The notes beneath the pieces are model-generated. The model ran no database searches and had not been told where the DNA came from. It was given only the letters and a program-made list of their open reading frames with translations. The position numbers and the translations under genes were made by a program. From assembly GCA_964016885.1 (NCBI GenBank), contig OZ024743.1, positions 322,524,001 to 322,588,000 of the forward strand: 64,000 nt of DNA, given 5' to 3'. The DNA is from Eledone cirrhosa (Eukaryota). Position 1 is the first letter of the stretch. Every line of letters starts with the position of its first letter. Below, in pieces: positions 3,089 to 61,712 of the stretch.

Positions 3089-3461
3089 AGAGAGAGAGAG
3101 AAATGACTTCTACAGGACTAGAACTGTTTCAATATTGAGAGAGTTGCTCTTGAGGCCATAACAAATACATATAAACCAGTGTAAACAGGTTTACACACAC
3201 CATATGCACGCTCAAAGACGTTAGACAATAACGAGAAACGGTCACAAGCAACACAACTACTGTAAACTAAAAATATATTTTATACTCATCTATCACATCG
3301 CTGACATATTTCGCAACACCCTAACATCTCACTTGTAACCTACCTCTCCAATTGCTTCCCTCGACCGCACACGCTCACACACACACACACATACACATAC
3401 ATACATACATACATACATACATACATACATACATACATACATACATACATACATACATACA

Positions 3462-3489
<28 letters not shown>

Positions 3490-3492
<3 letters not shown>

Positions 3493-4142
3493 GTAAAACA
3501 AAGATCGAGGATGTAAGTCACATTGTTGCCAGCTGCGAAAGAATGTCATCTCGCTACTACCTCCTCATGAGACACGATGGGATAGCTAGAACCATCTGGA
3601 ACGCACTTCGGAAATCAAAATTAACAACAAGCGAGGAAGAATATATTGAGACAGATGGCACTAAGGAATACTGGTGGAACCTGAAAATAAAAACTGCCAC
3701 CAAATTAAAGCACAACCGGCCTGATATTATTGTTTGGGACCACACATTGAAAACGTGTTCTGTTGTGGAGATCAGCTGCCCACTTGATGTAAACGTTGTC
3801 AGAAAAATACAGGAGAAGGAGGACATCTACGGACCATTGATGAGGTGTTTGCAAATCCAGTATCCAAGATACACCTTTAGGTTCATACCCATCATTATTG
3901 GAGCTACGGGTTATATACCACCCGTTTGGACCAAAGTATGACTGAACTTGGATTTGCGGACAAAGAGCGCAGCTCCCTAATTTGTAGTCTACAAGTGGCT
4001 GCGATAGCTGGCACCTTCAAAATTTGCAAAACTTTCTTGCGTTCTTGCGATTCAAAGGATGACAATTTCTTTTCTTTTACAACCTTGCCACCAGGAAGGT
4101 GGCCGGTCAAAAAAATATACTCGAAATTAAGAGAAAGAGATA
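3490..4142 (+). mobile_element. 5'-truncated R4/Dong-like RLE LINE (endonuclease end)
   Basis: RHD, RPDII and VEISCP restriction-like endonuclease motifs; (CATA)n on both sides. Confidence 0.8.
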
Positions 4143-4169
4143 ACATACATACATACATACATACATACA

Positions 4170-7100
4170 TAGACAGTCAACGCGATCAGTCGCATATTTT
4201 GGCGTGGGAGACTATTTATTAAATTTAAGATGAATACTATCTCCGAAAGTAATGCCACAACTACAGTCAGGTGGAATAACTGGTTATTCTTCTAACTATC
4301 CCTTCTGAAGACACCTTTTATTCGAATTCGTAGAGATATCCGACTAAATACATAATTCATTTTACAAGGATGTGCTACAAACAGCATGGCTGAACACAAC
4401 ATCAACAAAAAAATTAAGGAAGTATCGAAGACAAATAACAAGGAAAGTAATCAAACTTTATTCAGTTGTAACTACAGAAGAAACCGAAATTATAAATCGC
4501 ATTTCTCTTGGAGTTGCGAACTTAATAATGATTTATTTAATTGTTATAAAATGGCAAAAAACAATCTCTCCATTGGCTATATGAATAGAATGAAGCTACA
4601 CTGGGACGAAATGCACCCAGAGCTAAATTATTTCACAGCGAAACAATTACGCCAACAAGCGACGTTTGTTGAACGTAAAAATAAGATAAATATTATTAAT
4701 TGTAAGTCCCCCACAACAAACATGGAATCAACAACACTTGCTACAAGTCGCCATGCTACTAGACTTCCTAGCTGCCAGGTCGAACAGCGCCTTGAAACAA
4801 CTATGCTTGTAAGAAACTTGACACCACCTGTACCATCTAAGTCTACATCGACTGTTGTGGAAAATACTACCGATAATTGTTTCTACTATTGGCACAAGGC
4901 CAGCAATTACTCAGTACATTACTGGTACTTTATTTTATCGACCCCGTAAGGATGAAAGGCAAAGTTAACCTTGGCGGGATTTGAACTCAGAATGGCAAGG
5001 GCCGTAACTTTATGTGTCAAAGCATGGCGGATAATCAAAAGTATAAACAATTGAAAATTTCCCCCAACGAAATCTTCCAGAAAGAAATTAACTCATGTAT
5101 AAATATCTCTCTTGCTGAACGTGTTAAAATGACAATGGTGAATAAAAAACCAAATAATGAAATACTACGTGTTATTGACGAAATAAGGGATGAATATTTA
5201 CGGCGGTTAAAAACCCCAACATTTTGGCAAATCAACGCCTGTTTATATGCCTTAGCAATGACAGTGAAGCATTATCTTGGTGATAGCAGAGATATTAACA
5301 AGAACAAAAAACACCACCAAAAATACTATCATATATAACTAAAATAGAAAAAAAGAGTGCTGACCTACGAAAAAACATAGGACATGTGACAATGCTCCTT
5401 ACATGCAAACAAACACAAAAAAAACCTCACTCCTCATCAACAAAGAGTGAAAAATAAAATAGAGACGATGTTTGGTAACAGTAGAACCAGAACTCTCCAA
5501 TATAAGCTGATCACCCTCAAACAAAACGCCGATACCTGAAGAAGGTAGATGAGAGAAAAGTGCTTAATAAAAGATTCAGACGAAACCAAACATCAGTCTA
5601 TAGAGATATGAAGGGCAAAATAATAAGTGTCACTGAGGCCCCATCCCAGAAAGACATAGATTCCTTTTGGAGAAAAATATGGGGTGAAAAGAAGAATTTC
5701 AACCAAGATGCAGTGTGGCTAAGAGAAATCCGAAATAACTATTGCTCCTACACTACAACAAAAACATACAAAATAAGTGAGGGTACCCTTGAAACTGTGA
5801 TAGGAAAACTCCAAGATAAGAAAACACCAGGAAGAGACATGATTGTCGGCTACTGGTACAAAAAACTAATATTCTATCGGAGGTATCTTACTGACCTCTA
5901 CCAACAAGTTCTTAAGGGAGATACACTTATACCAGAATGGTTGACATTAGCACAAACGTTACTGATCCCCAAGAACAAAGACACCCACTTGGCAAAAAAC
6001 TACCGACCCATTGCATGCCAGAACCTGATGTATAAGATGTATATAGCCTGCCTGAACCTATTCCTCCAAGATCACTGTGAAAATAATAACATCATCACAG
6101 ATGAACAAGCAGCTGGAAAGGGGGGGGGGGGGTGCTGAACAACTCCTAATCAACAAAACTGCGATGTCGGAGGTGCAACAACTTAGGAGGAATATGGCTA
6201 CAGTCTGGCTGGACTACAGGAAAGCTTTCGATTCTGTTCCCCACTCTTGGATGATAGAGGCCCTCCAACTTGCTAAAGTCCCAGACATTATTGTCAGAGC
6301 CATAGAGAGGCTGTCTTCTTCTTGGGCTACTATCCTAAGGTTAAAGACAGAGAGGGAGGACTCTATTTTCCCTGATAAAATAAAATATTGCAGGGATATA
6401 TTTCAGGGGGACAGTCTCTCTGTGATATTGTTCATCTTGTCATTAAACCCCTTGTCCTTTCTGCTCAAGAAATGTGAGGGATACATCATTGGCTCACAGG
6501 AGGACTGAAATACGAACCTAACCCATAATTTCTTTGTGGACGATCTGAAACTCTATGCCAACAACATGGATGGGATGAAGAAAAATCTTGACCTGGTTAC
6601 AACGTTCTAAAAGGATATAGGAATGGAGTTTGGCCAAGATAAATGCTCATACATGACTGTAAAGCGGGGAAAAACAACAACCCAATCTAGCAACATTGTC
6701 ATCAATTGTCTAACGGTTCCACAGATATCTGATGAGGACTGCTACAGATACCTGAGGATAGATGAGAACATATCCTATAATGGTATCTGTAATAAAGAAC
6801 GCGTAACCAGGGAATACTACACCCGATTAAGAAAGATCTGGTCATCGGAACTCTCTGCCCAAAACAGTGGCTCACAATGTGTTTGCTGTGTCTGTCCTAA
6901 CACCAACGTTTGGAATACTCAATTGGACGATAGACGAAATCCGAGCAGTTGATGTTGGAACTTGAAAAATACTGAACAACACCGGAAACTTCCACATCAA
7001 CAGTGACATAGACCGCCTTTACTTGAAACGTTAGCAGGGAGGCAGAGGCCTAAGATCAGTCCAGGCAACATTTGAATGTCGCATCATATCTCTCCGACAA

Positions 7101-8310
7101 CATCTACGAACCTCGAAGCGTAGGAGCCCGTCTCTCGAGCAAGTCTATCTGCATGAAACAGATCATGAGAGTTGGGAAGGAACTCCTTGAGAGATATTCC
7201 CTGTGTGATAATCAAAAACTCACACCCAGGGGAGTCGCTCAGCAGTATCGCAGTGAATCCATGATGAAAAACTGCATGCCTATCAGCAAAGAATCATGCA
7301 TGGATATGTTGCCAGGAAGCTCCAGAGTGAGAGTAATATAGATAAGCAAGGTAGTCTATCTTGGACCAACAGCCGCTATATTGGCTCCCACTTTGAAGGA
7401 TACGCTTTTGCAATCCAGGAACAGGAGATTAGCACGAAATACCTGATTCACAAAAGAGAAAGGGATGCAGGCAAAACACCTAGATGTGATAAAAGTGCAG
7501 ACTCTGCAGAACTAACATCGAGGATATCACCCATGTCATCAGCAGCTGTCCAAAGATGTCATCGCGGTACTATCTACCTATGAGGCATGATGTAGTGGCC
7601 AAAACACTGTACAATGCAGTTCGTAAAAAAGATAGCCCCGATAATAAACACATTAAAAGCTACAACAATGTGGAAGACATCCATGTACATAATATGAAAG
7701 AGTACTGGTGGAATGTTCCAGTAAAAACCCCAATAAAATGCAGGCATAACAGACCAGATATTATGATATGGGACAGGGAGAAGAAAGCATCCACAGTAGT
7801 GGAAATTAGCTGCCCAGCAGATGCCAGTATAATATCAAAGATTAGTGAAAGGAGAAAATTTATGCAGAACTGATGAGAAATCTGCAGATACTCCACCCTG
7901 ATTACACCTTCAGATTTATGCCTGTGATATTGGGGCACTGGGGTATGTTAGTAACTGCCTCAATACCAATCTTGAGAAGCTAGGCTTCACAGGAACAGAA
8001 AGAACACAACTAGTTATGAAATTACAAGTACAATCCATTAATGGAACAATCAAAATATGTAAAACATTCCAAAAATTGTGCATCTAATAACTGCATATAC
8101 ACATGTACAAAGCATATACACATGCACACATAGAACTCAAAACATCCACATCCACACATACAATAACATCCATATCTACACATGCATGCATACATACATA
8201 TCTACCTAGTTGATGTTGTGTAAATTCCAATGAGAGAGTCTTGTGTCTATGTTAGAAACCGACTCTCTCTCTATTGATAAAACTTTGTGAAATTATAAAA
8301 CCAGAAGAAC
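4170..8310 (+). mobile_element. Near full-length decayed R4/Dong-like non-LTR retrotransposon (RT + CCHC + RLE)
   Basis: YRPIAC, WLDYRKAFDSVPH, IFQGDSLS, FVDDLK, then HVISSC, RHD, RPDI, EISCP. Many frameshifts and stops; SINE insertion at ~4865-5008; bounded by (CATA)n. Confidence 0.85.
4865..5008 (-). mobile_element. tRNA-derived SINE fragment nested in the R4-like LINE
   Basis: Reverse complement carries B-box gagttcaaatccc and the tcgataaaataaagtaccagt body shared with other SINE copies. Confidence 0.7.
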
Positions 8311-17027: not shown

Positions 17028-17028
<1 letters not shown>

Positions 17029-18314
17029 GAGGTGTGTCAGAAAAGTTCCAGGACTGATGTCACAAAAGATTTATTTCAAACCTAAACTTCACACTAAGAG
17101 TTTTCGCCTTCAAAGTAATCCCCATGGAGTCTAATGCACTTTTCCATCCTTTTCTGCCATGCTTGCATGCACTCCTGGAAGGATTCTTCCGGGATCCTCC
17201 GCAGTTCTGTCGTCACGGCCTTTTTGATGTCGTCCACGTATTCAAAACGGGTCCCCTTGATGACCCCTTGAGCCTGGGGAATAGGAAAAAATCACACGGA
17301 GCCAGGTCGGGGGAGTAGAGAGGTTGCTCCAGCCCGGCGATGTTCTTCTCGGCCAGGAACTGTCGGATGCTCAGGGATTGTGAGCAGGTGCGTTGTCATG
17401 GTGAAACCGACACGAGTTGTCCTGCCACAACTCTCGCCTCTTCTCACGCACTGAACGAAGCAAACGCTGCAGTATCCCTTTGTAGACATGTTGGTTGATC
17501 GTCTGGCCCTCTGGCAAGAACTCGCAGTGGACGATCCCCCTCACATCGAAGAATGTGATCAACATGACCTTGACTTTGGACTTCGACTGTCGGGCTTTCT
17601 TCGGCCTTGGCGACGACGGACTCCTCCACTGAAGGCTCTGGCGTTTGGTTTCCGGGTCGTACTCGAAAATCCATGACTCATCACCGGTGATGACTGTCCC
17701 CAGCAAGTCTGATTCGGTTTCAAGACGCTCGAAGATGTCCTGACACACTTGCATGCGTCGACCCTTCTGGTCATCGTTCAGCAGTTTTGGCACCATCTTC
17801 GCGCAGACTTCCCGCGTGTCCAAATCTTCAGTGAGAATCTTCCAGACGCTGTCCCAATTCATGCCCAGCTCATTTGCCATCAGTCGAACAGTCAGCCGAC
17901 GATCGCTACGTACCATCTGCCTGACGCGCTCAACGTTGACCTCAGTCCTGGTTGTTGAGGGCCTTCCACTCCTGGGGTCATCTTCCACGTCCTCGCGTCC
18001 TTCTTTAAACCTCTTGCACCACTCAAAAACACGTAAGCGTTACATCGTATCATCTCCATACACTTGCTGCAGCAATCCCAGTGCTTATGACGGAGTTTTC
18101 CCCAACCGTTCGTTGCTCTGTGCTCATTGCTTGACGACCTGAAACAGAGGACATGTATATAAAATTATGAAGAAAAACGTTTGATCGCTACTGAGAGCTA
18201 AGATTACAGTTACATACTCCAGGGGGATTACTTTGAAGGAGAAAACTCTTAGTGTGAAGTTTGGGTTTGAAATAAATCTTTTGTGACATCAGTCCTGGAA
18301 CTTTTCTGACACAC

Positions 18315-18318
<4 letters not shown>
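17028..18318 (-). mobile_element. Mariner (D,D34D) transposon, frameshifted
   Basis: TIRs cgaggtgtgtcagaaaagttcc in (TA)n; motifs RSGRP, MVPKLL, TGDESW, HHDNAP, YSPDLAPCDF. Confidence 0.92.
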
Positions 18319-18385
<67 letters not shown>

Positions 18386-18660
18386 GTATAGAGAGAGAGG
18401 GGGAGAGATATGTATGTGTGTCTATATATATGTATAGATATGTATTTGTATATATATATATATATTTTATATATATGTGTATATGTAGATATGTATATAT
18501 ATATATACATATATATGTATATAGATATGTATATATATATATATATACATATATATGTATATATAGCGGCGATGAATTAGTTTTGCGAGGTTTTTTATAT
18601 GAAATCGTATGAGTGTGTTGTTATTAATTCTGGCAATATTACACAAATATGACCCTCCCC

Positions 18661-18727
<67 letters not shown>

Positions 18728-18744
18728 ATAGATATGTATATATA

Positions 18745-18836
<92 letters not shown>

Positions 18837-18889
18837 CTATATACACATACATATATGTATATATGTTTGTGCGTGTGTGTGGATATGCA

Positions 18890-18957
<68 letters not shown>

Positions 18958-19278
18958 TTGATCTTTCCTCTTTTGGTTATTTAACATTCTCCCTTCTCAT
19001 TCCCGGTTAAAAAAGAATTTTTTTTTTCGTCTGCACCTTCCGCAATTGGTACATATTTGTCTGTCATTCCAAGCCCCTGTGTATAACTTCCGGTTGGTTA
19101 CGAAAGCAATTCTACGTTTTACATCCGTCAGCTTAACACGCCAACTGTCATTAATTTTGACTATTTCCTATAACTTTCCGTCCTAGCTTATGAGTAATAA
19201 TGGTACAGTCTCTCTCTTCATTTTATTCTATTTCATTCTGTTCTCCACACTTCTCTCTTGCTCTCTTTGAAAGAGAGA

Positions 19279-19352
<74 letters not shown>

Positions 19353-19536
19353 GACGTAAATAAGAAAGTTATGAAAATTGACTTAAATACACATATATAT
19401 ATATATATACACACATATATATACACACACATATATATATATATATATATACATATATATATACATATATATAAATATATACATTTATACATACATATAT
19501 ACATACATATATACATACATATATACATTCATACAA

Positions 19537-19683
<147 letters not shown>

Positions 19684-19873
19684 TTTACACACGTACATGC
19701 AAATATGCGATGTGTTTCTGTCGTTTTCGTTTACAAGATTTCACTCACAGTCAAGTAGAAGACAATTGCCCAAGGTCCCACGCATTGGGACTGAAGCCGA
19801 GATGACGTGGTTGCGGAATGAACTGCTTGACCACACTGCCATGGCTGCGACTATGTATATGTCTGTACGTGTG

Positions 19874-19923
<50 letters not shown>

Positions 19924-20598
19924 CTTGTCTCTCTTTCTCCGCCCAATTCTTTTTATCCCAATAACTTATTTTAGTTATTGTTGGCCTAGCCTGAGGTATC
20001 TGGTCTTTAATGCGAAGAAATACCTATGATGGCTAGTAGACCACTGATGATGGCTAGTAGACCACTGATGACGGATAGTCCTGGCTTCTATTTCTAATTC
20101 TTCATTTTAATTTATATATATATATATATATATATGCAAAATAAACTGAAAACAACGCAACAAAACAATACAGTACGGTGAATATATATATAATTCTTTG
20201 CTTCTAGATATAGTAGGAAAAGAGCCTTAATCTTTCGGATATTAGTCCTTCATCCGAATATACAATGGTAAGTAAAAGAATAGAACGATAGAGGAGAGTG
20301 AGAAGAGGAAGAAACGGAAAAACCATTGGGTTTGTTTATTTGTTGTTTTGTTTTTTTTTCGAAAAAACACATGTGTTCAGTCATACATATATTCTTTATT
20401 AAGGGCTCGTCTTCTTTTTCTGCATATATATATATATATATATATTGTTATACATTGGGAGGGTCATGTTGCCAATAAGAAACACACGCACCAGTTGCTT
20501 TCACTTCAATTTATTATAATAAATTTATAATAAATTTATAAATTTATAAATTTCTGGTTGGTTGGTTGGTTCCACAACCAGATAGTTGTTTATATATT

Positions 20599-20641
20599 GT
20601 CATAGTTCTTTCGTCACACACTCTGTGACCTCTTCAGTGAC
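20599..20641 (-). ncRNA. Minimal type I hammerhead motif, Naiad-like pLTR
   Basis: gtca-CUGAAGA-g-gucaca/ugugac-GAAA-gaac-UA-ugac. Confidence 0.75.
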
Positions 20642-20931
20642 TGGGGATTCCTTTCTTTGTTTTTGTGCCTCTCCTTTGTTCTGTCCTACGCCATTTTGTT
20701 TCTGTGTGTGTGTTGTGTGCTCAGTCTGCGCATGCGCCACATCCGGGTGTCTGTGTGTGTTTATGTTCATTTATTTATTTGTTTATTTACATGTTACTGG
20801 TTGGTTGTTTGTTCTATGTGTGTGTTTTCATTTTGTCCTGTGTGTGTTTTCATTTTGTCCTTAATTGTAAGTTGTTTGTTCTATGTGTGTGTGTGTTTTC
20901 ATTTTGTCCTGTGTGTGTTTTCATTTTGTCC

Positions 20932-22682
20932 TTAATTGTAAGTTGTGATGTTGCTGTTCCACTCATATTTTCTATTTAATTTTGGTTGTAATTCTTTTAT
21001 GCTTACTGCCTCTGTAATTTGCCTAAACATTGCATCTTTTCTGTGTGTGGATTCTATTTTTATTTCTATGTTCTCTAATCTACCCCTGTGTTCTATCTTA
21101 GCATGTTGGTAGAGCACAGATAATTCTTTATTATCTTAAAGGTCTCGCCAGTGTTCATTTATTCGTTCCCCTATACTACGAGCTGTCTCACCTATGTACA
21201 CTATATTTTTGTTTCTACATTGTCCTTCAGTACATCTTATGCTATACACTACATTTCTAGTTTTACAGTTAATATGGGGGCTTATTTTACAGGTTATACA
21301 TTTCTTATCTATACATGAGGGTCTTTGAAAAGGGTATGTCTTGCTAATAAGTGTTTTTACGGAGGTACCTGGTCTTTCTACTATCTTAATATTGAGTTTA
21401 TGTTTATCTAGGGCCCTTCTAAATTTGTAAGCTAATTCACCTCTAGGGGTTGTATCGATGAACATTACACTCTGGTATTTATTGCTATCATACCATGAGT
21501 TTATTCTATTAGCCTTGTTCCTAGTTCTTTCTATTCTATTCCAAAATTTGCTCCTATACAAGGGGCAGGTCCCATTTATGTCATTATTTACCATTTTTTC
21601 CCATTTGGTTCTGGCTCCTCTATACACTCTGATTTTATCTCTCTGATTGTAGCCAGAGAACTGCATACGGTGGATGAAGTGTTGTATGTGTCTCTCTAGT
21701 TCTTCGGGGTTGCACATGCGGGACACGTTTCTCATCACCCGTACCAAATCCGCAATCAGTATGTTGATTTTGGTATGGTCCGAAACGGCCGAGTTTCGGT
21801 GGATCAGATGTTTGGAAGTCATGGGTTTGGCATAATGGGAATGGAGGATTTGTTTTTTGTTATTAATGGTATCTAACCAGAGCTCTGTGTCTAGTACAGG
21901 TAATCGATGGTTGGGGTGTTTACTTGGGTAGTCTATAGTAACTCTAATGCTCTGGTGGATGGAGTTAGCTATTTGCTGGATACTTTCCATTGTGTTTTTC
22001 TCTAGTTCCTGACTGTTCTCTAGTGGGGGTGTCTTAACTACGATGTTTATATCATCAACGTAGCGGGAGTACATTATCAGGGTTAAGGGGTCTTCTACTA
22101 ATTGTTCTTTAAGTTTAAGTTTAAGTCTACTGTCCCACCATACCATGAATAAGTTAGCTATGTCGCCTGCAATGCTAACACCAATGACTGCTCCTTCCTC
22201 TTGGGCATATGTTTTTCCATTAAATTTGAACATATGTTCCTTAAGGGTTAGTTTTATGCTGGCCCCTACCGCATGTGCAATCATTTTCTTCAGTTCATCG
22301 TGGTTTTCGGGTGTCCGTATGGCTCTGGTCCACCCGTTCCATCTATCTGTGTGGGTTTTCTTGGCCATTGAGGTAATGGTGGGTGGTCTGCCTCTCGCTG
22401 GTCTTGTAGGGCACAGGTTGCTAAGGTCATATGTGTCTAGGTAATTATTACTATAGGTAAGTTTAAGTAGGAGTCCCAGCTCACTGGTATCAATCCCACG
22501 GAACTCAACATTGCTCTCAGTGATCATTTCTACGCATTTCTCCACAGCAAAATCCACGTCAATAGATGGATACAGGGACACAACATCCATACTACCTATT
22601 ATGCAGTTTGTTAGGTCCCTAGATCGGTTACTCTCGCCGATTCCGCTGAGGAGGTCCTCCGTGCTGTCACATACATCTGGGA
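20932..22682 (-). pseudogene. Naiad-like RT-GIY-YIG ORF with one in-frame TAA at 21136-21138
   Basis: After EHWRDL-TAA the same frame continues DNKELSVLYQHAKIEH...RQITEAVSI...LNRKYEW, completing the GIY-YIG domain. Confidence 0.85.
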
Positions 22683-22849
22683 ACAATGACGTGCTGGCGT
22701 TGTATGGGCTTCGAAAAGACCATAAAACGGGCAGTGACCCTGTCGCGGGACCACCAACACGGCCAGTCTGTGGAGCTAACATTGCTAGTAACTACAGACT
22801 GTCCTACTTCCTCTCCCTGATCATACGCCCCATCATTGAAATGTCCCCA

Positions 22850-22892
22850 GTCACTGAAGAGGTCACAGAGTGTGTGACGAAAGAACTATGAC
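22850..22892 (+). ncRNA. Minimal type I hammerhead motif, inverted pLTR copy
   Basis: Same sequence as 20599-20641 on the opposite strand. Confidence 0.75.
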
Positions 22893-23666
22893 AATATATA
22901 AACAACTATCTGGTTGTGGAACCAACCAACCAACCAGAAATTTATAAATTTATAAATTTATTATAAATTTATTATAATAAATTGAAGTGAAAGCAACTGG
23001 TGCGTGTGTTTCTTATTGGCAACATGACCCTCCCAAAGTATAACAATATCGGTTTCAACACACGATTTCAGATAAAGAATCTTGCTAAACAAATTCAGAA
23101 ACGAAATATATATATATATATATATATAAATCGAAAAAATGAAATTTCATTTACGACTGATACTTAAATATAAGTATGTATACGTACATACATATATGTA
23201 TACAGACGTACAGAAGTATGTATATACATACATACATGCACACATATATATATGTACGTATGGGTTTACCGAACATTATGTTCGGTTTGAACACTGTACG
23301 GCTTAATTCGGGCTGTTTGTTTACAAACAAACCGAATATTGTCCCAGCTATATGCATGTAGATGCAGTCACTGCGTGTGCAGAGCCTCTGGCATAATGAA
23401 TAACAGCATATTTTGTGGTTACGTGTTTGTGCTGTGGGATGCTCATGTAGCTTCATAGATTTTGATAGATTTTTCGTAGTAAGTTTATATGGATATGTAT
23501 ATATATATATATATATATATACAAAATTCATAGCGATAAATGTATATATTTAGACATATATATTTAGACATATTTATACATAGTCACAGATACATATATG
23601 AGTGTGGCTACCTTTCACAGTGTGAATCAATGAAAAATTTATTATGTAATAATTCTTCAAACTTAC

Positions 23667-23757
<91 letters not shown>

Positions 23758-24278
23758 TTCATATCCAAATATATATTTACCTAGACTGCGATTCTGTTTT
23801 TTTCTCTCTCTCTCTCTTACTGCTCCCTCATTCTCTCTGTTTCTCCTACTTTCTTTCGCCCCCTCTGTCATGTCAGTTAACTCTTCCTAACACTTCCACT
23901 CACTCACTCACTGTTTCTCCTCTCCTCACTTCATTCCGTTCGCGACGAAAGCAATTTCTCTCTTTCTCACATTGCATTCGTTCGCGAAAGGTCTTTTTTC
24001 TAAGCGCTCATATATTCACCTAGCTTATGCTAACAGAATAACTATGAAGCTTGTTTCCTTCCTTCTACGGTTAGCTCTACTCTTTGTTGTTATCTTGTCT
24101 CACTCCCTTTACGCGTTTTAATTGTCCTAATAACTTAATTTAGTTATTATTGCACCGACGTGAGGTATATGATTTTTAATGCAATGAAATATCTATGATC
24201 GTCGGCAAATCACTGATGAGGGACTTATTTTATTACATGTTATCCATGTGCTACCGGCAGTATTTTTCTCCCCATTTT

Positions 24279-24400
<122 letters not shown>

Positions 24401-24480
24401 ACCTAATACAACTGTGTACAATTGCCCCTGCGTTTAGTTTGTTCTTTTCAACTATGTATATATATATATGCATATATATT

Positions 24481-24610
24481 AATAAAAGGAATTCCAACTT
24501 TATCTGATTAACTCGTTTTATTTACAATCCTTTAAAATTATAATGATATTATAATGAAATAGAATGGTAGAATATTAAATGTTAATTGAACATGTACTTT
24601 CATGCTTTCA
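24481..24610 (-). mobile_element. Diverged solo 3' end of the Neptune-like pLTR
   Basis: Similar to 57508-57648; truncated inside HHR stem II; in (TA)n. Confidence 0.75.
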
Positions 24611-24721
24611 TATATATGTGGGTATATATATATATATATCGATATATATATATATATATCCATATATATATATCGATATATATATATGGATACATATATA
24701 TATATATTCATATATTTATAT

Positions 24722-25396
24722 AAAAAAGAAAATTTTCGCTCGACATGGCTGAATACAATAAATGTAATCTGAGTTTTTCGAATATTAATAATTGTTTCTA
24801 ATTTAGGCACAACATTCGATTCGTTTGCAATTATGCAAACAAGCCTCAATTTTATAGCCATGTCACAAGAGGAAGAATGAAGGGTTCATTCTATTGACAT
24901 TGAGGCTTGTTTGCATAATTGCAAACGAATCAAATGTTATTATTGATAATCGAAAAACTCAGATTACATTTATTGTATTCAGCCATGTAGAGCGAAAATT
25001 TTCTTTTTTATTTGAATTTGGCAAAGCCGGCCATTTATCGCTCGTATACAGGAAACTGACTGGCCAGTCGGCTGATTTGCAAATCTGGTTGATGAGTGGA
25101 TCTGCTAATATGCAGATCTGACTGATCAGCCAGTCTGCTAATATACAAATCAGGCCGATCAGTCACTGTGTATTTTTGAAAATAGCATATATTTTCACAG
25201 GCTTGACAGTTTGGCAGGTGAACAGTGAGCTGTACTGATGAAGGGTGATACCTAGAAACATTAGTGTCTGCAGTTCTGTTAACATGCCAACACAAGAGCA
25301 AGAATGAAGGGTTCATTCTACTGACATGGATATAAAATTGAGGCTTGTTTGCATAATTGCAAACGAATCGAATGTTATTATTAATAATCGAAAACC
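24722..25396 (+). mobile_element. Non-coding HHR-containing repeat with pLTR-like inverted plus partial-tandem structure
   Basis: 24867-24958 recurs at ~25293-25396, and an inverted copy lies at ~24722-24865; flanked by TA-rich microsatellite. Confidence 0.65.
25228..25275 (+). ncRNA. Type I hammerhead motif with GUC cleavage site
   Basis: agcugua-CUGAUGA-agg/ccu-a-GAAA-cau/gug-UC-ugcaguu. Confidence 0.8.
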
Positions 25397-25458
25397 ACAT
25401 ATATTTATACATATATATATATGTATACATATATATATATTCATATATATTTATATAT

Positions 25459-25513
<55 letters not shown>

Positions 25514-26235
25514 CATACATAGAAATATATACACACATACATATATACATATATATAAATATATATACACATATATATACATATATATACACATATATAT
25601 ATACATATATTTACACACATATATATATGTACATACTTATATACATATATATATATACATATATATACATACACATACGTATATATACACGTATACATAC
25701 ATATACAATCACACATATATATATATACACACATACATATATACACATACATACATATACATACATACAATACATACATTCATACATGCATACATGCATA
25801 CATGCATACATACATACATACATACATACATACATACATACATACATACATACATACATACATACATACATACATACATACAAACAAACAAATATTCAAA
25901 ATAAGATTTGAAACTCTAGAATTATGGGAAATTGGAACTAAAAAGAACATATAGTATTCATTACATTTTCCGTTTGGTTTCTCTAGAAATTGAGGGCATT
26001 GCAGATATGAATCAAAACGAGGCAATATGTTTCATTCAATTAAGAATTGGTACATAATAAGAATGGTTTTACATGAAGCGTGACGCCCTCATAATTATGG
26101 ATGAAATGATTCTAAGATGGCTAAATTGTTTTGAGTACGCATTGAAATATGAACGAGAATTTTTAAGTAGATCAGATTCTTGCCTCGATGTGCTACCGAT
26201 AAGGAATAGCTATGGCGTAAGCATATCATACATTC

Positions 26236-26795
<560 letters not shown>

Positions 26796-27058
26796 ATATC
26801 TACATACATGTATACAAACATCCTTACATACCTACATCTATACATACGTAAGTACGTACATAGATACATACAAACTCATACATACACTCATAACTACATA
26901 TATACATAACTGCATACATACATAACTGCATATATACATAACTACATATACACATAACTACATATGCGTGTGTTACTACGATACACACACATACACACAT
27001 ATATATATATATGTATGTGATTATATATATATATTTATATATATATATATACACACAA

Positions 27059-27105
<47 letters not shown>

Positions 27106-27141
27106 CAAATATATATATATATATATATATTTGTATATTTG

Positions 27142-27177
<36 letters not shown>

Positions 27178-27277
27178 TATATACAACTATATATATATAT
27201 CAATGGTATTAAAAAATGGAAACTATATTTATAAAACTATATTTATTCTATTAATACCGTATATATATATATATATA

Positions 27278-28163
27278 TGAGGTGTGTCAGAAAAGTTCCA
27301 GGACTGATGTCACAAAAGATTTATTTCAAACCCAAACTTCACACTTCTCTTACTCCTTCAAAGTAATCCCCCTGGAGTATGTAACTGTAATCTTAGCAGC
27401 GATCAAACTTTTTTCTTCAGAATTATATATACATGTCCTATGCTTCAGGTCGTCAAGCAATGAGCACAGAGCAACGAACAAACTTGAAAACTCCGTCATA
27501 AGCACTGGGATTGCTGCAGCAAGTGTATGGAGATAAGACGATGTCATGCTCACGTGTTATTGAATGGTGCAAGAGGTTTAAAAAAGGACGCGAGAACGTG
27601 GAAGATGCCCTTAGGAGCAGAAGGCTCTCAACAACCAGGACTGAAGTCAACGTTGAGCGCGTCAGGCAGATGGTGCGTAGCGATCGTCAGCTGACTGTTC
27701 GACTGATGGCAAATGAGTTGGGCATGAATCGGGACAGCGTCTGGAAGATTCTCACTGAAGATTTGGACATGCGGAAAGTCTGCGCGAAGATAGTGCCAAA
27801 ACTGCTGAACGATGACCAGAAGGGTCGACGCATGCAAGTGTGCCAGGACATCCTCGAGCGTCTTGAAACCGAACCAGACTTGCTAGGGACAGTCATCACC
27901 GGTGATGAGTCATGGATCTTCGAGTAAGACCCGGAGAGGACCCGTTTTGAAGACGTGGACGACATCAAAAAGGCCGTGACGACGGAACTGCGGAGGATCC
28001 CGGAAGAATCCTTCCAGGAGTGCATACAAGCGTTGTAAAAAATGATGGAAAAGTGCATTAGACTCCAAGGGGATTACTTTGAAGCAGAAAACTCTTAGTG
28101 TGAAGTTTGGGTTTGAAATAAATCTTTTGTGACATCAGTCCCGGAACTTTTCTGACCCACCTC

Positions 28164-28164
<1 letters not shown>
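27278..28164 (+). mobile_element. Internally deleted mariner, same family as 17028-18318
   Basis: Same TIRs; the transposase jumps from WIFE* to TRFEDVDDIKKAV. Confidence 0.9.
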
Positions 28165-28223
<59 letters not shown>

Positions 28224-28534
28224 AATTAGTATACCTCGATGTCACGTGATTGATTGTTTTGAATTTGCCACCGACGCAGTAGGCAGTGATTTTTTCAATG
28301 GCTTGGAACTTAGTCCACGCTTTGCTTTTTTCCATCCACTGAATTATTTTTGTATAAGTTCCCTGTGTCCACGTATTGCCTGGAAACTTAGCCGAGAATA
28401 GACTTCCCTGATGACGAAAGGCTTCTCCGTACGTTTCTTCGGAAACTACGTTTATTCCCTTTCAGAAACTAATTAGTTGGAGTGAAATTTTAGTAAGTAA
28501 GTTAATTTTTATAATTTTCTTATTTTACGTATCT

Positions 28535-28580
<46 letters not shown>

Positions 28581-28901
28581 AATATATATATATATATGGT
28601 AAATGTCTTTAAGTCGTTTGGAAGCCTCGACAATGCAGATGGGTAAATCTCTGGGTAACAAGATCCGGTAGGGGAGAGAGAGATGTAAGTGGTGTACGTT
28701 GAGATGCGTGGCGTGTATAAGACGTGTAGAGGAATGAAGGAAAGAGCGTAAAGGATAAAAATTAAAATAACAACACGAGAGAGAGAGTTACCTTGGGAGA
28801 GATTTAATTGTCCCTATATATTTCGGATTCACATCCATCAACTGGATATATATAATATGGAATACTGTTGGCTTCTTGCTACAATAATTTCTATACTTTT
28901 C

Positions 28902-28982
<81 letters not shown>

Positions 28983-29530
28983 AATATATATATATATATT
29001 ATATATATATATATTTGTATATATATATATATATTATTCAGAATATTAATAAATGAATACATTCACATAATCAAAATATATGTTTTATTATATATATTTC
29101 GAGAGGTACTGTGTTGTTTTTTCAGTACGTCCACGTCAGATAAAATACATAAATTGATGTATGACATACCTCAACAGTCTTGCTGGTTCAATTCCAATAT
29201 ATATATATAGTAATAATAAAAAGTGTGAAGGCTAAAATCCAAAGAGGGCTCGATAAGTATAAATAAATATTCATAATCATAATTATTTATATATATATAT
29301 ATATATATATATCACAGAAGAAACGGAGAATCAGTGGTGCGACGAATTAGAATTTATTAGACATATTACAATGATTTCTCTGGCGAACAGCTCGAAGCAC
29401 GATCGATGCGATGATCGGAGCTGACTCTGAAATTGCAAGTTCATATACGTCTCAATCCCTCAAAGTAGAGTTTCCATTTGGAAACTCTACTTTGAGGGAT
29501 TGAGACGTATATGAAGAACTTGTGATTATG

Positions 29531-30199
29531 CCGCTCATATCGAATTTTGTTTATCGTGAACTCGTGCGCCGATTTTTCGATACTCGATTATTCTACTATA
29601 TTTAGCTCTAGACCTAGCTATTGACCAGTTAATTTTATTGATCATTTTTTGTCGATTCTATTAAATGATGAATAGCTCCTGTTTATTTTAACATGTCTAT
29701 TGAGCACTCTTATTCGATATGTGTATTTCCACATTTTCCCGAATATTTTTCGCGGATGTAGAGGTTATCTCCCTTGCCGAATTCCATGTGCGTATTTAGC
29801 TTGGGTTATGCCTTTTCATTCGTTTGGACAAAGCTCGTTGAAGAAGTAAATTTCCTGTCCACTGGTACCTAGAAGTCTTAGATATTTTTATGTGAGCTGA
29901 TAGAGAACAGTTTAAGGATTTACAGAAACCCAAGAAGCTAGATTTAACATCTTCCTAGCGGGTCCGGGTATGCTTTTTACATTCATTTAATTTATTTATT
30001 GATTTTTTATCTGAGTGTCCCGAATCTTCCGGATCGCAAATTTTCGATCGTACGGTTGATTATAGACTTGTTCTATGTGTGACGGTATTTTAACGATAGT
30101 TATAGCTCTGATTTATCTAAATTATGGAGCCCTCTACCGCTCATATCGAATTTTGTTTATCGTGAACTCGTGCGCCGATTTTTTGATACTCGATTATTC

Positions 30200-30701: not shown

Positions 30702-30894
30702 CGAAGGAAATGTGGTAAGGAACCAGGTGGACCATAACGCGCCAAAGTACTCAATACTTAGGGTAGTAGAGTGGGTAATAGGAACAAGTAAGACCCCGAC
30801 GGCTGAGCTCAAGCCGTTTCGACGGCTAATTCTGGACACAATTAGCCGTCGAAACAGCTTGAGCTCAGCCGTCGGGGTCTTACTTGTTCCTATA

Positions 30895-40200: not shown

Positions 40201-40405
40201 GTCAGCAGTCTGTATTACATGTAGCAGTCAAATGAAAATGGACAAAAGAAGTAAGAAAGAATACTCACAACATATCCGCTGATGTCACCATATCGGTAAG
40301 GACGTGGTGGTGGTGACCATCGCATTGACATATTGCTGTCTGACAGCCAATGAATAGAGTTCAACCAGCTCACTGTAATTCCTGGTCTTCCTGTTAAGTA
40401 CATCT

Positions 40406-42055
40406 ATTACAACCATGGAATTTACACCTGCGACGTCACCTAAAAAATAAACGCAACCATGCCTCTCCTGGTTTTGATAGTGTTACGTACCTGCTTCTTA
40501 AACGTGGTGGGTACTTCCTTCTGCACCAGTTATCACGCTTCTTCCAATTCTGTCTGAACAACGGTGCTACTCCAGAACAGTGGAAAACTGCCAGTGTCAT
40601 TCCTCTGTTCAAAAAGGGTGACCGCACATCACCTGTGAACTATCGTCCAGTCAGTCTTACTAGTTGCATTGCCAAACTGATGGAATCCTGTGTCAGAGAA
40701 ACACTTTGGAACTTCTGGAACTCTCACAGTCTTATCCGGCCCTCGCAATTTGGATTTATCCCCAACTCCAGCTGCTGTGATCAACTTATCGAGTTTCTTG
40801 AAGACATCACCCGGATCACTGATGGCGGCTCATGGGTGGATGTTGTTTACCTTGACTTTGCGAAAGCCTTCAATTCTGTGCCACACAAAAGGCTTATGGC
40901 AAAACTCTCTGCAATGGGTGTGAAGGATGATCTTTTTAACTGGTTGAAGTCCTTCATTCTCAGTCGAAGAGAGGTAGTCACGGTTCTGGGACAGCATTCC
41001 TCACCATATGAGATGTCATCTGGTGTACCACAGGGATCTGTTCTTGGCCCCCTTTTGTTTGTGGCATATATTAATGACACAGATGCCAACTTAAAGAATT
41101 CCACAGTACTAACGTACGCAGATGACATCAAGCTGTACCTTGAGATAAAAAGGACAGATCCTGAACACTATAGATCTTGCTTGCAGTCTGACCTGGACAA
41201 TGCAACAATGGATCTCAGACTGGCAACTCAAGCTAGCTCTGGACAAGTGCACCACCATGCATTTTGGGAGTAAAAACCCAGCGTCCACATACTCCCTCCA
41301 CAGCACTAATATCAAGAAGTCTTCTTGTGAACGTGACCTGGGCATTACGGTCAGCAGCGATTTGCGTTGGACGAAACACGTCTCTAAATTTGTCAAGAGG
41401 GCCGAGGATATCTTAGCATCACTCAGCAAGACCTTTGTCAGCCGCTCTCCACCTATCTATTTAAAGCTGTACATGGCTATGGTGCGGCCACACTTAGAAT
41501 TTGCATCACCAGTCTGGAACCCCTATCTTGCTCAGAACATTGACCGCCTGGAAACTGTTCAGAGACGTACAACCGAGCGAATACCCTCAATCAGGCATCT
41601 ACCATACTCTGAACGCCTTGCTTCCCTGGGCATGGATACATTGAAGCTCCAACGCCTGGCAACTGACTTGGTAAACACCCACAAAATTGTTAACCATCTT
41701 GCCAACAACCCTGAGTACCTTTTTGATTTCCATGTGTCTAACACGTGGGCATGCTCACAAAGTCAGAAAACAGTACAGTTCCCATGACTTTCGGAAACAT
41801 TTTTTCACGCTCAGAGTTGCTGAAGCATGGAACAAACTACCTGCATCGGTTGTTAGCAGTCGAGACACTCCATCCTTTAAGGCCTCCATGTTCCCCCTCC
41901 ATACACATACACACATGTATATCATGACTCATACACTATTCACTTCCCTGACATTTGTGTATTATTCTATGTACTATACATGCACCTTTGACGAGTTGTA
42001 GTGCACCTGAACACTTTACACAATAATTTCATTATTATTACTATTTATTATTACC
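40406..42055 (+). mobile_element. 5'-truncated CR1/Jockey-group LINE
   Basis: NYRPVSLTS, YLDFAKAF, GVPQGSVLGPLLF, YADD, VRPHLEFASPVW; frameshifts; (ATT)n tail. Confidence 0.88.
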
Positions 42056-48834: not shown

Positions 48835-51800
48835 TAACTTTCTTTTTATTTGCCACCAGGGCTTCAAAGAGTGGGACAAATACAATGGGGGGAGTTTACA
48901 TAAAAAGGCGTCCTCAATAAGGAGGAGGCAATAACAAGATATAAAAAATAATATATAAAATATAACAAAAATAAATTTAATAACAAAATCCTCAATAGGG
49001 AGGAGGCGCCTTGGGGGGTCGCACACAACCCCGAAAAAAGTGTGCAACCCTTCTCCTCAGGAGCACAGAGAGGGTGTCCTCCCTTGATCTTTCATCTTCT
49101 TCACCCATAGTCTGATGTAGAGTGAAGGCCCATTCACACGGGCCATTCTCGCAACTTTCACCCATCTTTCATAGAAACGGCTGAGGTGCAGCACCTCTCT
49201 CTCCATCCTGATCCTTCTTCCGAAATAATATCGGAAGAAACGGACCAGTTGTTGGCCAGAGAGAAAGGTGTCTGACCTCAGTCCTTTCAGACGCGTCCAC
49301 CATACAACCTCTTTCGCCGTGGCTATTACGCACAGAAACACCGCCTCTTCTTCGTTTTTGAAGAGGGGAGGCGGCTTGATCGTTACAATAGACTCGGTGG
49401 TCAACCGGATCGGTCCCACCCTTGACAGCAGTTGTTCGACATAGCCCCACAGATCGGCAATGCCCGAGCAGTGTACCAATGCGTGTGCAACGGTTTCCTC
49501 GTCGCACACGCATCTGGGACAGATCTTTTTCGAGGGGTCCTTACCCGGGCGCCCGTGTCTGTAGAGCCTTTCTCGAACGGGCAGAGCCCCTCGGTAGCAC
49601 TACCAGGCCAGGGACCTCTGGAAGTTATCCATGGGTCCCGGGCTGAATGTCCTACCGAACAGGTTGGCCAGTTCGTCTCCCTCCATGCCTAGGGCTTCTC
49701 CGAGGGCGTTGTCGCACCTGCTAACCTCCAGCCCTCTATAGAATGACGAGGTGGATTCTCCACTGACAGCCGGGTCCGCCTGCCAGAGAGCCGTGAGCGC
49801 CTGGGCACACTCGGTGTGCCAGGCGCCCAGTTTTCTCGGTCTTTGCTTGACCCACGATTGCAGCTCGGTGAGCGAGACGAGTCCGGGAAAGGCACGCCTC
49901 ACAAACGGAGCCCACACCGGTTGACTGGTGAGGAATACCTGGAGGTGCCGTAGCCTCAATGCGTGTTTACGTATCATTAGCCACGGCATCCCCAGCCCTC
50001 CTTTCGAAGGGTGTTGACAGCAGATGGATCTCCTCACCATAGGAGCCCGCTTCTTCCAAAGGAATTGGAAGAGTATGCGCTCCATTTTGGCGAGCGTTTC
50101 CCTTGGGCAAGGCACGACGGTCATGCGGTAGTAGATGACGGACGCTATATAAGTGTTCGCCACCTCCGCCCGACCTTTCAGGGACAGTTTGCACTCGGCC
50201 CACTTCTGGGACAGTGCAAACACTCTGTTCGTTACCTCACCCCAGTTCTTCTCCACCTGGAGGTCTGATCCGAACCAGACCCCGAGCAACTTCACCGGGC
50301 CCTCTGTCCAGAGCCTGACGACGCCATCGGAGGGCAGCGATCTGCCCCTCCACGTGCCGAGTTGCAGACCGATCGACTTGTCCCGGTTCAGCTTAGCCCC
50401 TGTAAACCTTTCGTACTCCTCCAGTAAGGTGCCGATCGCCCCGATTTACGAGGCCGTCGATACCATTACTGTTACGTCATCGGCGTAGGCCGACACCGCT
50501 TTCCGCAATCCCGGTTCCAACGGGATGCCCTGCAACAACTCCAACTTCCGCAGCAGTGGCTCTAGAGTCATTACATACAGAAGGGAGGAGAGAGGGCACC
50601 CTTGTCGGATGGACCGCGCGATTTCGAACGGCTCCGAGAGGTAGCCGTTCACCTTGACCCTAGAGCAGATGCGGCTGCTGTGCATGGCAGTGTTCCAGCC
50701 CCTGTAAACGGGTCCGAAGCCTGCCGCCGCTAGCACCGCATCCAGGTAACCATGGTCGACCCTATCGAACGCCTTAGATTGATCCAAGTTGATCAGGGCC
50801 CCACCAAAGCCGGGTTCGTTGCCAACCCTCTCTATGATGTATCGCATGAGGTGGAGGTTGTCGTGGATGGACCTGGACGGGATAGCAAATGTCTGCGCAT
50901 CTCCCACCAGGTTGCCCACGACAAGCGCCAACCTCTTTGCTAGCACCTTGGCCAAAATCTGTAACTGTATTTAGCAGAGTTATGGGCCTGAAATTATTTA
51001 TATCGTCCCCCTTGTTCTCGTCCTTCCTCACTAGCGTGACTACACCCTTGGTCACAGCACAGGGAATTCTCCTGTTCTGTTGCCAGTTGCAGTAGACCGC
51101 CTCGAGGAGATCGGGGAACAAGTCCGGCATAGCTAGATATAGTTCGTATGGAAGACCATCGAGACTCGGGGATTTGCGTTTGCCGCATTGGCTCAGCACG
51201 TCCTCTATCTCAGCGGCTGAAATCGGCTCCTCGCAGGACTTCGCCTCCCTGTCCGAGAGACGCGGCAGGCAATCGAGGTATGGACCGAAGTCCACTTCCC
51301 CAACCGGTTCCCCGCCCCTTCCGAACAATCTGGCAAAGTGCTTTTGAAAAGCCTCGCACATCTGCTTAGGCTCAAGGATCACCCGTCCATTCTGGTCTCG
51401 CAAAGACCGGATAATGGATCTACTCCCTCTTTGGCTTCTGTCACGCGGGCCCAGCTAACAGGTTTGGTCCCCTCGTTTCCCAAAGCACGTATTTTGCTTC
51501 GGACGATGCAGCCTTCGTGTTTCGCGTCGAAGAACTGGCCCAGGGCCGTTCTCGACGCTAGCACTCTGGCCACGTCGCCGCTTCTAATTGCCTCTTCTAC
51601 ACTATCTACCAACTCCCTTTCCTTCCTATTTCTATTTGAGGCTAACTCCTTACTAAATTCTATAGAGACTACTCTAATCTCTCTTTTGAGAGATCCCCAC
51701 CACCTGCTGTTGACGGTGGCGCCCGTCAACCGCTCCTTAACTAAAGTGTTAATCCGGTCCCTGTAAGCCTTACTTGCCGGTAAGGACAAGTTGAGCTTCC

Positions 51801-55771: not shown

Positions 55772-55777
<6 letters not shown>

Positions 55778-56613
55778 ATACTTTGGGAGGGTCATGTTGC
55801 CAATAAGAAACACACGCACCAGTTGCTTTCACTTCAATTTATTATATATTTATAAATTTATAAATTTATAAATTTACAAATCTACAAACTTATAAATTTC
55901 TGGTTGGTTGGTTGGTTTCACAACCAGATAGTTGTTTATATATAGTCATAGTCCTTTCGTCACACACTCTGTGACCTCTTCAGATAGAACACAGGGTAAA
56001 TTAGAGAACATAGAAATAAAAATAGAATCCACACACAGAAAAGTGCAATATTTAGGCAAATTACAGAGGCAGTAAGCATAAAAGAATTACAACCAAAATT
56101 AAATAGAAAATATGAGTGGAACAGCAACATCACAACTTACAATTAAGGACAAAATGAAAACACACACACACATAGAACAAACAACCAACCAACAATAAAT
56201 AAATAAATAAATAAACAAATAGATAAATGAACACAAACACACACAGACACCCGGATGTGGGGCATGCGCAAACTGAGCACACAACACACACACAGAAATA
56301 AAATGGCGTAGGACAGAAGAAAGGAAAGGCACAGAAACAAAGAAAGGAATCCCCAGTCACTGAAGAGGTCACAGAGTGTGTGACGAAAGGACTATGACTA
56401 TATATAAACAACTATCTGGTTGTGGAACCAACCAACCAGAAATTTATAAGTTTGTAGATTTGTAAATTTATAAATTTATAAATATATAATAAATTGAAGT
56501 GAAAGCAACTGGTGCGTGTGTTTCTTATTGGCAACATGACCCTCCCAAAGTATAACAATATCGGTTTCAACACACGATTTCAGATAAAGAATCTTGCTAA
56601 ACAAATTCAGAAA

Positions 56614-56617
<4 letters not shown>
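55772..56617 (+). mobile_element. Short Naiad-like copy: inverted pLTR + GIY-YIG tail + pLTR
   Basis: 55984-56617 matches the 3' end of the 20445-23108 element; 55772-55983 is an inverted pLTR; HHR at 56355-56399. Confidence 0.85.
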
Positions 56618-57386: not shown

Positions 57387-57509
<123 letters not shown>

Positions 57510-57623
57510 TAAGAGGAATTCCAACTTTGTCTGATTTACTCGTTTTATTTACAATCCTTTAAAATATATATAATGGTATTATAATGAAATAGTATGATAG
57601 AATATTAAATTCTAAGTGTTAAT

Positions 57624-57662
57624 TGAACAAGTACTTTCATGCTTTCGCAATCTTCAGGTTCA
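57624..57662 (-). ncRNA. Minimal type I hammerhead motif
   Basis: ugaac-CUGAAGA-u-ugc(gaaa)gca-u-GAAA-guac-UU-guuca, with a palindromic stem III. Confidence 0.8.
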
Positions 57663-61630: not shown

Positions 61631-61712
61631 GTTGGCATATACACAATAGGAATATATATATAGATATAGATAGGTAAATATACACGGGTGTGTATGATTG
61701 TGTATAGAAGAT

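Follow-up and report, generated by a model that had tools for sequence, protein, structure and literature searches.

Hammerhead ribozymes of permuted block order are known from environmental sequences (Eckert et al. 2023, PMC10085705). Natural hammerheads of types SGC and CSG cleave in vitro, and in these a helix of similar length joins stems I and II. Type SGC (HRIMA-1 and variants) is known only from metatranscriptomes and cleaves at rates of 0.007–0.19 per min; type CSG consists of two metagenomic sequences. In known organisms there was no permuted hammerhead but one GCS candidate, and at most 1–2 nt were assumed between A9 and stem II (PMC10085705).

Canonical Penelope-like elements (PLEs) carry type I minimal hammerheads in their pseudo-LTRs, and a role in processing and circularisation has been proposed for PLE hammerheads (PMC4209133). 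Naiads, PLEs that reach copy numbers in the tens of thousands in genomes of invertebrates, have been reported without canonical hammerheads, and some of their families are tagged “HHR_core” or “HHR_half_core”. From the apparent absence in Naiads it was inferred that hammerheads are dispensable PLE passengers (PMC8557442).

Searches of open-access PMC and bioRxiv gave no paper that connects permuted hammerheads with Naiads or with any other retroelement, or that places a kink-turn (K-turn) in a natural retroelement hammerhead. The retrozyme preprint 10.64898/2026.07.22.740005, in the part covered, has type I models only.

Two diverged element ends in the window

The window (the whole stretch of 64,000 nt that was analysed) is AT-rich, microsatellite-rich eukaryotic repeat DNA with many retroelement fragments, including Penelope-like RT/GIY-YIG open reading frames. 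Copy A is a 5′-truncated element end on the plus strand at positions 19920–20112, between TA runs at 19890–19919 and 20113–20134. Copy B, also 5′ truncated and on the plus strand, occupies positions 23752–24282 between repeats at 23672–23751 and 24283–24364, where its 5′ limit is inferred from the repeats only; it has (TA)n(GA)n on one side and (TA)n on the other. An earlier sequence-only reading had placed the hairpin described below in a TA-inserted repeat, and the flanks of both copies bear this out. The plus strand is T-rich in both (39% T in A, 41% in B), and the last CUGAUGA stands 41 nt (A) and 63 nt (B) before (TA)n.

Homology between the copies extends over 130 nt, farther than the sequence-only reading had it, from 19924–20053 in A to 24094–24222 in B, with 72% identity (nhmmer within the window, E-value = 1.5e-18 to 4.5e-18). 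Within it is a gapless 101-nt alignment (19950–20050 with 24119–24219) in which 25 of the 101 positions differ. The tails of A and B show no detectable likeness to each other. No third copy was found in the 64,000 nt, either with nhmmer or with a covariance model with filters off (next match at E-value = 1).

A segment at 18957–19280 (plus strand) probably derives from the upstream part of an element of B's family, possibly of copy A itself. It shares a collinear 12-mer and 11-mer with the region upstream in B, a combination reached in 3 of 5000 shuffles; its local alignment score was reached in 5 of 1000. In a whole-region test the segment does not rise above z 3.5, and 640 nt of TA repeats and other fragments lie between it and copy A.

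Both copies keep a 51-nt hairpin, at 19986–20036 in A and 24155–24205 in B, with the sequence and coordinates that the sequence-only reading gave. The outer helix is paired at six of six positions in each copy; four of its pairs have changed on both sides and all four are compensated. The inner helix is paired at five of five positions in each copy, with one G-C changed to G-U. Between the helices the U-U, G-A and A-G oppositions and a 3-nt bulge are invariant. The covariation and the invariant internal strands, both noted in that reading, are thus present as described.

In a neutral simulation with 25 random substitutions, six or more compensated changes with no broken pair among 23 pairs occurred in 0 of 400,000 trials from either starting copy, the 23 pairs having been chosen after inspection of both copies. 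Two compensated changes in stem I alone (see below) occurred in 1340 and 1311 of 400,000 trials. Controls with slid pairing gave 0–1 double changes, against six observed. A column-shuffle control, which has only two sequences to work with, reached the observed values in 7 of 500 shuffles. Folding energy by itself is unremarkable (z = −1.84 for A and −1.09 for B, the two windows being shifted by one base), and z = −3.48 was obtained for A's minus strand.

Core strands, block order and kink-turn

Most likely the hairpin belongs, as an arm bent by a K-turn, to a hammerhead ribozyme whose parts follow an unusual order. All three hammerhead core strands are present in exact register in A and B, in the order cleavage site, GAAA, CUGAUGA (S-G-C). 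Each copy has CUGANGA, GAAA and UH with the A15.1–U16.1 pair, a 6-bp stem I running directly up to C3, a 5-bp stem III directly after GAA, and a nucleotide other than G at H17. The inner helix of the hairpin is hammerhead stem III, and its loop holds the cleavage site, one strand each of stems I and II, and GAAA. These loop strands pair outside the hairpin and so form pseudoknots. The core nucleotides are invariant between A and B, and the helices are variable.

In copy A, block S is at 19995–20006 and contains the stem III strand (19995–19999, U16.1 at 19999), H17 (C20000) and the stem I strand (20001–20006); the predicted cut is 20000/20001. Block G is at 20017–20024, with G12-A13-A14-A15.1 at 20017–20020 and the stem III partner extending to 20024. 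Block C (20038–20050) consists of the stem I partner (20038–20043) and CUGAUGA (20044–20050). Not noted in the sequence-only reading, CUGAUGA occurs twice in A because 21 nt at 20026–20046 are duplicated in tandem at 20047–20067; the region 20047–20071 thereby holds a second stem I partner and a second CUGAUGA at 20065–20071. In copy B, stem III is formed by 24164–24168 and 24189–24193, H17 is A24169 with the predicted cut at 24169/24170, the stem I strand is at 24170–24175 and GAAA at 24186–24189. Block C of B is at 24207–24219, with the stem I partner at 24207–24212 and CUGAUGA at 24213–24219.

Stem I is a pseudoknot in both copies: the hexamer just before CUGAUGA pairs with a hexamer in the hairpin loop, with two compensated changes between the copies that the sequence-only reading had not predicted. 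The duplexes of B are weak (stem I −3.5, stem III −0.7 kcal/mol). The partner of the stem II strand is upstream, just 5′ of the outer helix. In B this strand (24149–24154) makes six of six Watson-Crick pairs with 24180–24185, directly 5′ of GAAA. In A the strand (10.x, 19980–19985) is damaged, making three of six pairs with 20011–20016; shifted by one position it makes four consecutive-position pairs of five. The first pair of stem II in B is A-U, not G-C. Copy B appears to be intact, and copy A is probably impaired.

Two further helices, termed P0 and P1, stand between A9 and stem II because the stem II partner is upstream. In P0 the strand following CUGAUGA pairs upstream. In A it has 6 bp with one G-U (19953–19958 with 20073–20078, past the second CUGAUGA; −5.8 kcal/mol), and in B 5 bp with one G-U (24124–24128 with 24220–24224, directly past CUGAUGA; −6.6 kcal/mol); an A-U pair in A corresponds to G-C in B, one compensated change. 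P1 is a 6-bp hairpin between P0 and the stem II strand, at 19960–19979 in A (8-nt loop) and at 24129–24148 in B.

The outer helix (19986–19991 with 20031–20036 in A, 24155–24160 with 24200–24205 in B) may correspond to the helix that joins stems I and II in permuted hammerheads (PMC10085705) and is termed the closing helix here. It meets stem III at a K-turn. In A the non-bulged strand is at 19992–19994 (3n U, 2n G, 1n A) and the bulged strand at 20025–20030 (L1–L3, 1b G, 2b A, 3b U); in B the strands are at 24161–24163 and 24194–24199. The sequence features of a standard box C/D-type K-turn are all present: a 3-nt bulge ending in purine-U, tandem G-A/A-G pairs, flanking helices and U:U at 3b:3n. 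The sequence-only reading had named this motif, and the sequence matches the definition in PMC5689011. The −1b:−1n pair is C:G in both copies, and 4b:4n is G:C in A and C:G in B. By the rules of that study, folding in ions should be very impaired for the K-turn of A and moderate for that of B, so that aid from 15.5K/Snu13 is plausible. Unlike the box C/D K-turn, that of A and B has no guide sequence or outer C/D pair with it and is set in a ribozyme arm. K-turns bend to about 50 degrees (PMC5689011), and in a crude two-arm geometry the arm ends are ~28 Å apart, axis to axis, with the K-turn, against 62 Å for a straight arm.

All block orders were scanned in the window, and S-G-C was found only at A (in two registers) and B. 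Dinucleotide shuffles gave 0.043 S-G-C arrangements per window at looser, preset cut-offs, and none in 300 shuffles at stricter cut-offs that were picked after seeing the results. Hammerhead types I–III (CGS, GSC, SCG) are excluded by the S-G-C order, and there is no Rfam hammerhead match. A canonical type I arrangement, in which a stem II hairpin and then GAAA stand 3′ of CUGAUGA, does not apply, as neither copy has a downstream GAAA. A contiguous stem II of the SGC kind after CUGAUGA would have just 0–1 bp, and no stem II strand stands within 0–2 nt of CUGANGA. The Rfam library gave 0 matches at gathering threshold over the whole window. An E-value scan of 18000–30000 gave microsatellite-driven miRNA matches; of its 190 matches 150 were listed, and these include none at A or B. 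Narrow scans gave four weak matches at A and two at B, none of them a family for the motif.

Type SGC resembles A and B in the S-G-C order, in all core nucleotides, in the short link between stem I and stem II (typically 3 nt in type SGC, 4 nt in A and B), and in a helix that connects stems I and II at their far ends and is itself linked to the far end of stem III (PMC10085705). It differs in that A and B have the 10.x strand of stem II at the 5′ end with P0 and P1 between A9 and stem II, have a K-turn through which both strands run from stem III to the joining helix, and stand in animal genomic repeat DNA. In that study the SGC descriptor calls for G10.1 immediately 3′ of CUGAUGA(U) and for a C preceding GAAA, and A and B fail it. 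The contiguity that defines block C (at most 1–2 nt in PMC10085705) is absent because the helices split A9 from stem II. Type CSG has the same cyclic block order as A and B, in which, however, the opening lies within block C, where helix P0 is inserted. The type I hammerheads of canonical PLEs likewise place the core at a Penelope-like element end, but those are circular CGS with a short palindromic stem III (PMC4209133), whereas A and B have a full stem III and a pseudoknotted order. No tested hammerhead with helices between A9 and stem II was found in the literature covered; PMC13725137 mentions variants with additional helices, citing Weinberg 2015 (PMC4509812), which may offer a precedent for the inserted helices, and the part of PMC10162972 covered has nothing on extra helices. 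As judged from the sequence, A and B are probably a hammerhead variant outside types I–III, SGC by order and not by block C contiguity.

The sequence-only reading had placed a possible decayed hammerhead next to the hairpin. Here it was mistaken: the CUGAUGA belongs to the hammerhead of which the hairpin is a part, and the core is complete in A and B. Its K-turn, its doubts about a SECIS element, its (TA)n repeat and its pointer to Naiads have stood; the separate decayed hammerhead has not, and the pseudoknots had been missed.

Naiad 3′ ends, proposed folding and alternatives

The 3′ ends of 50 of the 54 Naiad consensus sequences in File S5 of PMC8557442 (all but Mley, Naiad-1_Chem, Lpol and Cmel) were compared by eye, rather than by computed alignment or R-scape, using the last 260–400 nt or the part flanking the core; the counts are lower bounds. 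The five-helix layout of A and B, with other helix sequences, is seen in at least 10 of these 3′ regions, in the order P0, P1, stem II strand, closing helix, stem III, UH, stem I, GAAA, CUGANGA. It is present in cnidarians (Naiad-3_Chem, Amil, Aacu, Anas and Naiad-2_Movir), an acanthocephalan (Plae), a crustacean (EuTe) and cephalopods (Obim, Ovul and Esco), and probably in Bfor. About seven of the 10 are independent, because Amil/Aacu/Anas and Obim/Ovul are near-identical sets. Aacu and Esco have two mismatches each. The first stem II pair is G-C in 9 of the 10 and the first pair of P0 varies, which argues that the upstream helix is the true stem II.

Among the 10 matches only Obim and Ovul have the K-turn; the others have a bulge of 1–7 nt or an extra hairpin at this place. 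The arm of EuTe is almost straight (10 bp, a 1-nt bulge and 5 bp, with ends 64 Å apart), and a monomer of EuTe therefore could not fold back. By eye, Obim and Ovul are like A and B in the K-turn, in helix lengths (5 bp for stem III, 6 bp for stems I and II) and in the loop of P1; Naiad_Obim and Naiad_Ovul both have the 8-nt loop of copy A. They also share (TA)n insertion (Ovul is tagged “HHR_half_core”), 5′ truncation, a T-rich sense strand and a similar distance of about 40–90 nt from CUGAUGA to the 3′ end (PMC8557442). Their helices all differ in sequence from those of A and B, which are therefore of other families than Obim and Ovul.

(TA)n insertion and 5′ truncation, seen in A and B as in Naiads, are not diagnostic because they are common to other PLE clades. 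A six-frame scan of the window for Naiad motifs (N-terminal GIY-YIG, CxC linker, DKA, C-terminal RT) gave one isolated DKA match, at 13094; A and B are truncated to non-coding ends and hence have no open reading frame for clade assignment. Exact 8–11-nt words of A and B gave no cephalopod match in the part of the Naiad supplement covered (PMC8557442), and the likeness is seen in the 3′ ends. By eye, the structure and loop of the Obim and Ovul ends match those of A and B, in line with the earlier pointer to Naiads, and A and B are quite probably Naiad members.

Other arrangements occur at Naiad ends. A CSG permutation with an ordinary stem II is found by eye in at least seven nematode ends (Nbra-1, -2, -3, Hcon, Hpol, Asuum and one Pristionchus), and Ptep and Smim have the S-G-C order in other layouts. 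For the other 30 ends no such reading was made: in several from Darwinula the cores are arranged differently, and for some the text covered does not include the relevant region. The ends from bivalves and hemichordates have in common a conserved motif without CUGANGA just past the open reading frame, possibly another self-cleaving RNA. At the 3′ end of Naiad-1_Movir (cnidarian; PMC8557442, File S5) there appear to be conserved twister-like strings, permuted in order, that agree with rows of the twister alignment in PMC10085705; such a motif in place of a hammerhead suggests that the 3′ position needs self-cleavage.

A and B are probably the 5′-truncated 3′ ends of two diverged Naiad-type families, each with a K-turn hammerhead of non-circular order. 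The parts would be arranged as P0 strand, P1 and stem II strand, then closing helix, K-turn, and stem III strand/cleavage site/stem I strand, followed by stem II strand/GAAA/stem III strand, K-turn, closing helix, and stem I strand/CUGAUGA/P0 strand. Core nucleotides, register, helices, compensated changes and TA flanks are seen in the sequence, and from here we infer folding, bending and processing. The core would fold as a hammerhead at a five-helix junction (I, P0, P1, II, III), in which P0 and P1 are branches inserted between A9 and N10.1. The K-turn would turn the stem III arm back, so that the closing helix meets the outer ends of stems I and II within one molecule, and an L7Ae-family protein (15.5K/Snu13) probably aids the bending. 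Cleavage after H17 would release unit RNAs from tandem or read-through transcripts. The ends of a cut unit RNA may stay clamped by four helices (P0, stems II and III and the closing helix), which would favour ligation to a circle or to a template for reverse transcription.

The same ribozyme might instead work as a head-to-tail dimer, in which, within a tandem transcript, the loop of one copy (blocks S and G) docks on the base of the other (stem II strand and block C), and the K-turn is mainly a protein-binding site or spacer; the arm-bending and RNA-processing steps alone would differ. This is the main rival, though an unlikely one, because the EuTe arm is nearly straight and metazoan PLE hammerheads act as dimers (PMC4209133, PMC6765202). 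The bend element also varies by family (K-turn, bulge of 3, 5 or 7 nt, extra hairpin), yet some bend is kept there in most families, the K-turn sequence is kept in four copies in which all helices differ, and SGC-1, with a 0-nt link, cleaved as a single construct (PMC10085705). Alternatively, the motif could be a non-catalytic RNP handle with a vestigial core, its K-turn hairpin recruiting either 15.5K/Snu13 or the RT of the element to serve stability, export or priming. The box C/D-type K-turn with U-U at 3b:3n, the lost contiguity of stem II and the description of cephalopod Naiads as long inactive remnants (PMC8557442) are in line with this. But the core is invariant between A and B as the helices vary and is kept across phyla in families without a K-turn, which makes the handle rather improbable.

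That the apparent covariation arose by chance, or by DNA-level repair of inverted repeats, is very improbable. There are just two copies, the folding z-scores are weak and the 7 of 500 column shuffles were noted above; the slid controls and the same layout in other phyla nevertheless speak against it, and a single DNA hairpin cannot explain the pattern because the crossing helices (stem I, P0) are also compensated. A box C/D snoRNA or U3-like gene or pseudogene (D′/C′ or B/C motif) would account for a box D-like strand followed by a box C-like strand and then CUGA. It is hardly to be expected here, however: neither copy has an upstream box C, both have TA flanks, retroelement consensus ends match, and the snoRNA scan that the sequence-only reading proposed gave best Rfam scores of 8.7–18.8 bits against cut-offs of 41–85. 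A SECIS element has a RUGA core, an open loop on its 5′ side, an uninterrupted upper helix and an apical AA 11–13 nt from the core. In A and B the 3-nt bulge falls on the 3′ strand, the wrong side as the sequence-only reading had objected, and within the core; the lower stem abuts the core, and no Rfam SECIS match appears at E-values up to 10. Four Naiad families do have SECIS elements, and tandem G-A pairs are in common, but those families are from spiders and clams, and for the Octopus families with the present motif the part of PMC8557442 covered lists neither an in-frame UGA nor a SECIS; the SECIS element of a selenoprotein-encoding Naiad is scarcely credible here.

Beyond the two families with the proposed K-turn hammerhead, it is suggested tentatively, and with considerable doubt, that Naiads carry a family of non-circularly permuted hammerheads that includes the five-helix topology, and that the cephalopod-type K-turn makes cleavage subject to gating by host 15.5K/Snu13, a control on retroelement RNA processing. 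If the hammerhead reading of these ends is right, it would overturn the inference in PMC8557442 that hammerheads are dispensable PLE passengers. Non-circular RNA permutations, so far only environmental, would then be present in high copy number in the genomes of animals, and CUGANGA would no longer have to be contiguous with stem II. A K-turn in a natural hammerhead would be a concrete answer to how the far ends of stem III and the stem I–II helix are joined (left open in PMC10085705) and a possible route to protein control.

Other elements of the window

A truncated Penelope-like RT/GIY-YIG open reading frame at 21136–22791 (minus strand) stands between inverted pseudo-LTRs at 20446–20647 and 22844–23045, each with a type I hammerhead with a 2-bp stem III (C3 at 20637 on the minus and 22854 on the plus strand). 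It was rejected as the parent of A and B, having its own type I hammerheads and the opposite strand. Related ends are found at 55774–56616. A second Penelope-like element at 57507–61711 (minus strand) has a 775-aa RT and GIY-YIG frame (Pfam), preceded by an overlapping 476-aa frame without a Pfam match, and a hammerhead-like motif at 57657. Its segment 57507–59789 is 100% identical to 61718–64000, a recent tandem or assembly duplicate.

A complete type I hammerhead is present in a short repeat fragment at 25227–25276 on the plus strand (C3 25235, G12 25255, H17 25268). The TA-flanked segment 28221–28536 (plus strand) has a CUGAUGA core, a long stem II and GAAAC, without a clear stem I; its last 44 nt match the minus strand of 19349–19390 (z = 7.5). 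Neither this segment nor those at 25880–26230, 19685–19870 and 20137–20400, considered as relatives of A and B, shows a detectable relation to them. A decayed hammerhead-like motif with one core change is seen by eye at 20230–20262 (minus strand).

Broken pieces of several kinds of non-LTR retrotransposon (RT and endonuclease matches) occupy 641–2525, 3339–7873, 40398–41787 and 49057–53736. Two Tc1/mariner copies, at 17028–18317 and 27279–28164, are 92% alike, the second being internally deleted. Long near-perfect, MITE-like hairpins are present at 29423–29535 and 30778–30893, and a minisatellite array with a 26-bp unit and a strong GC skew extends from 34177 to about 36700.
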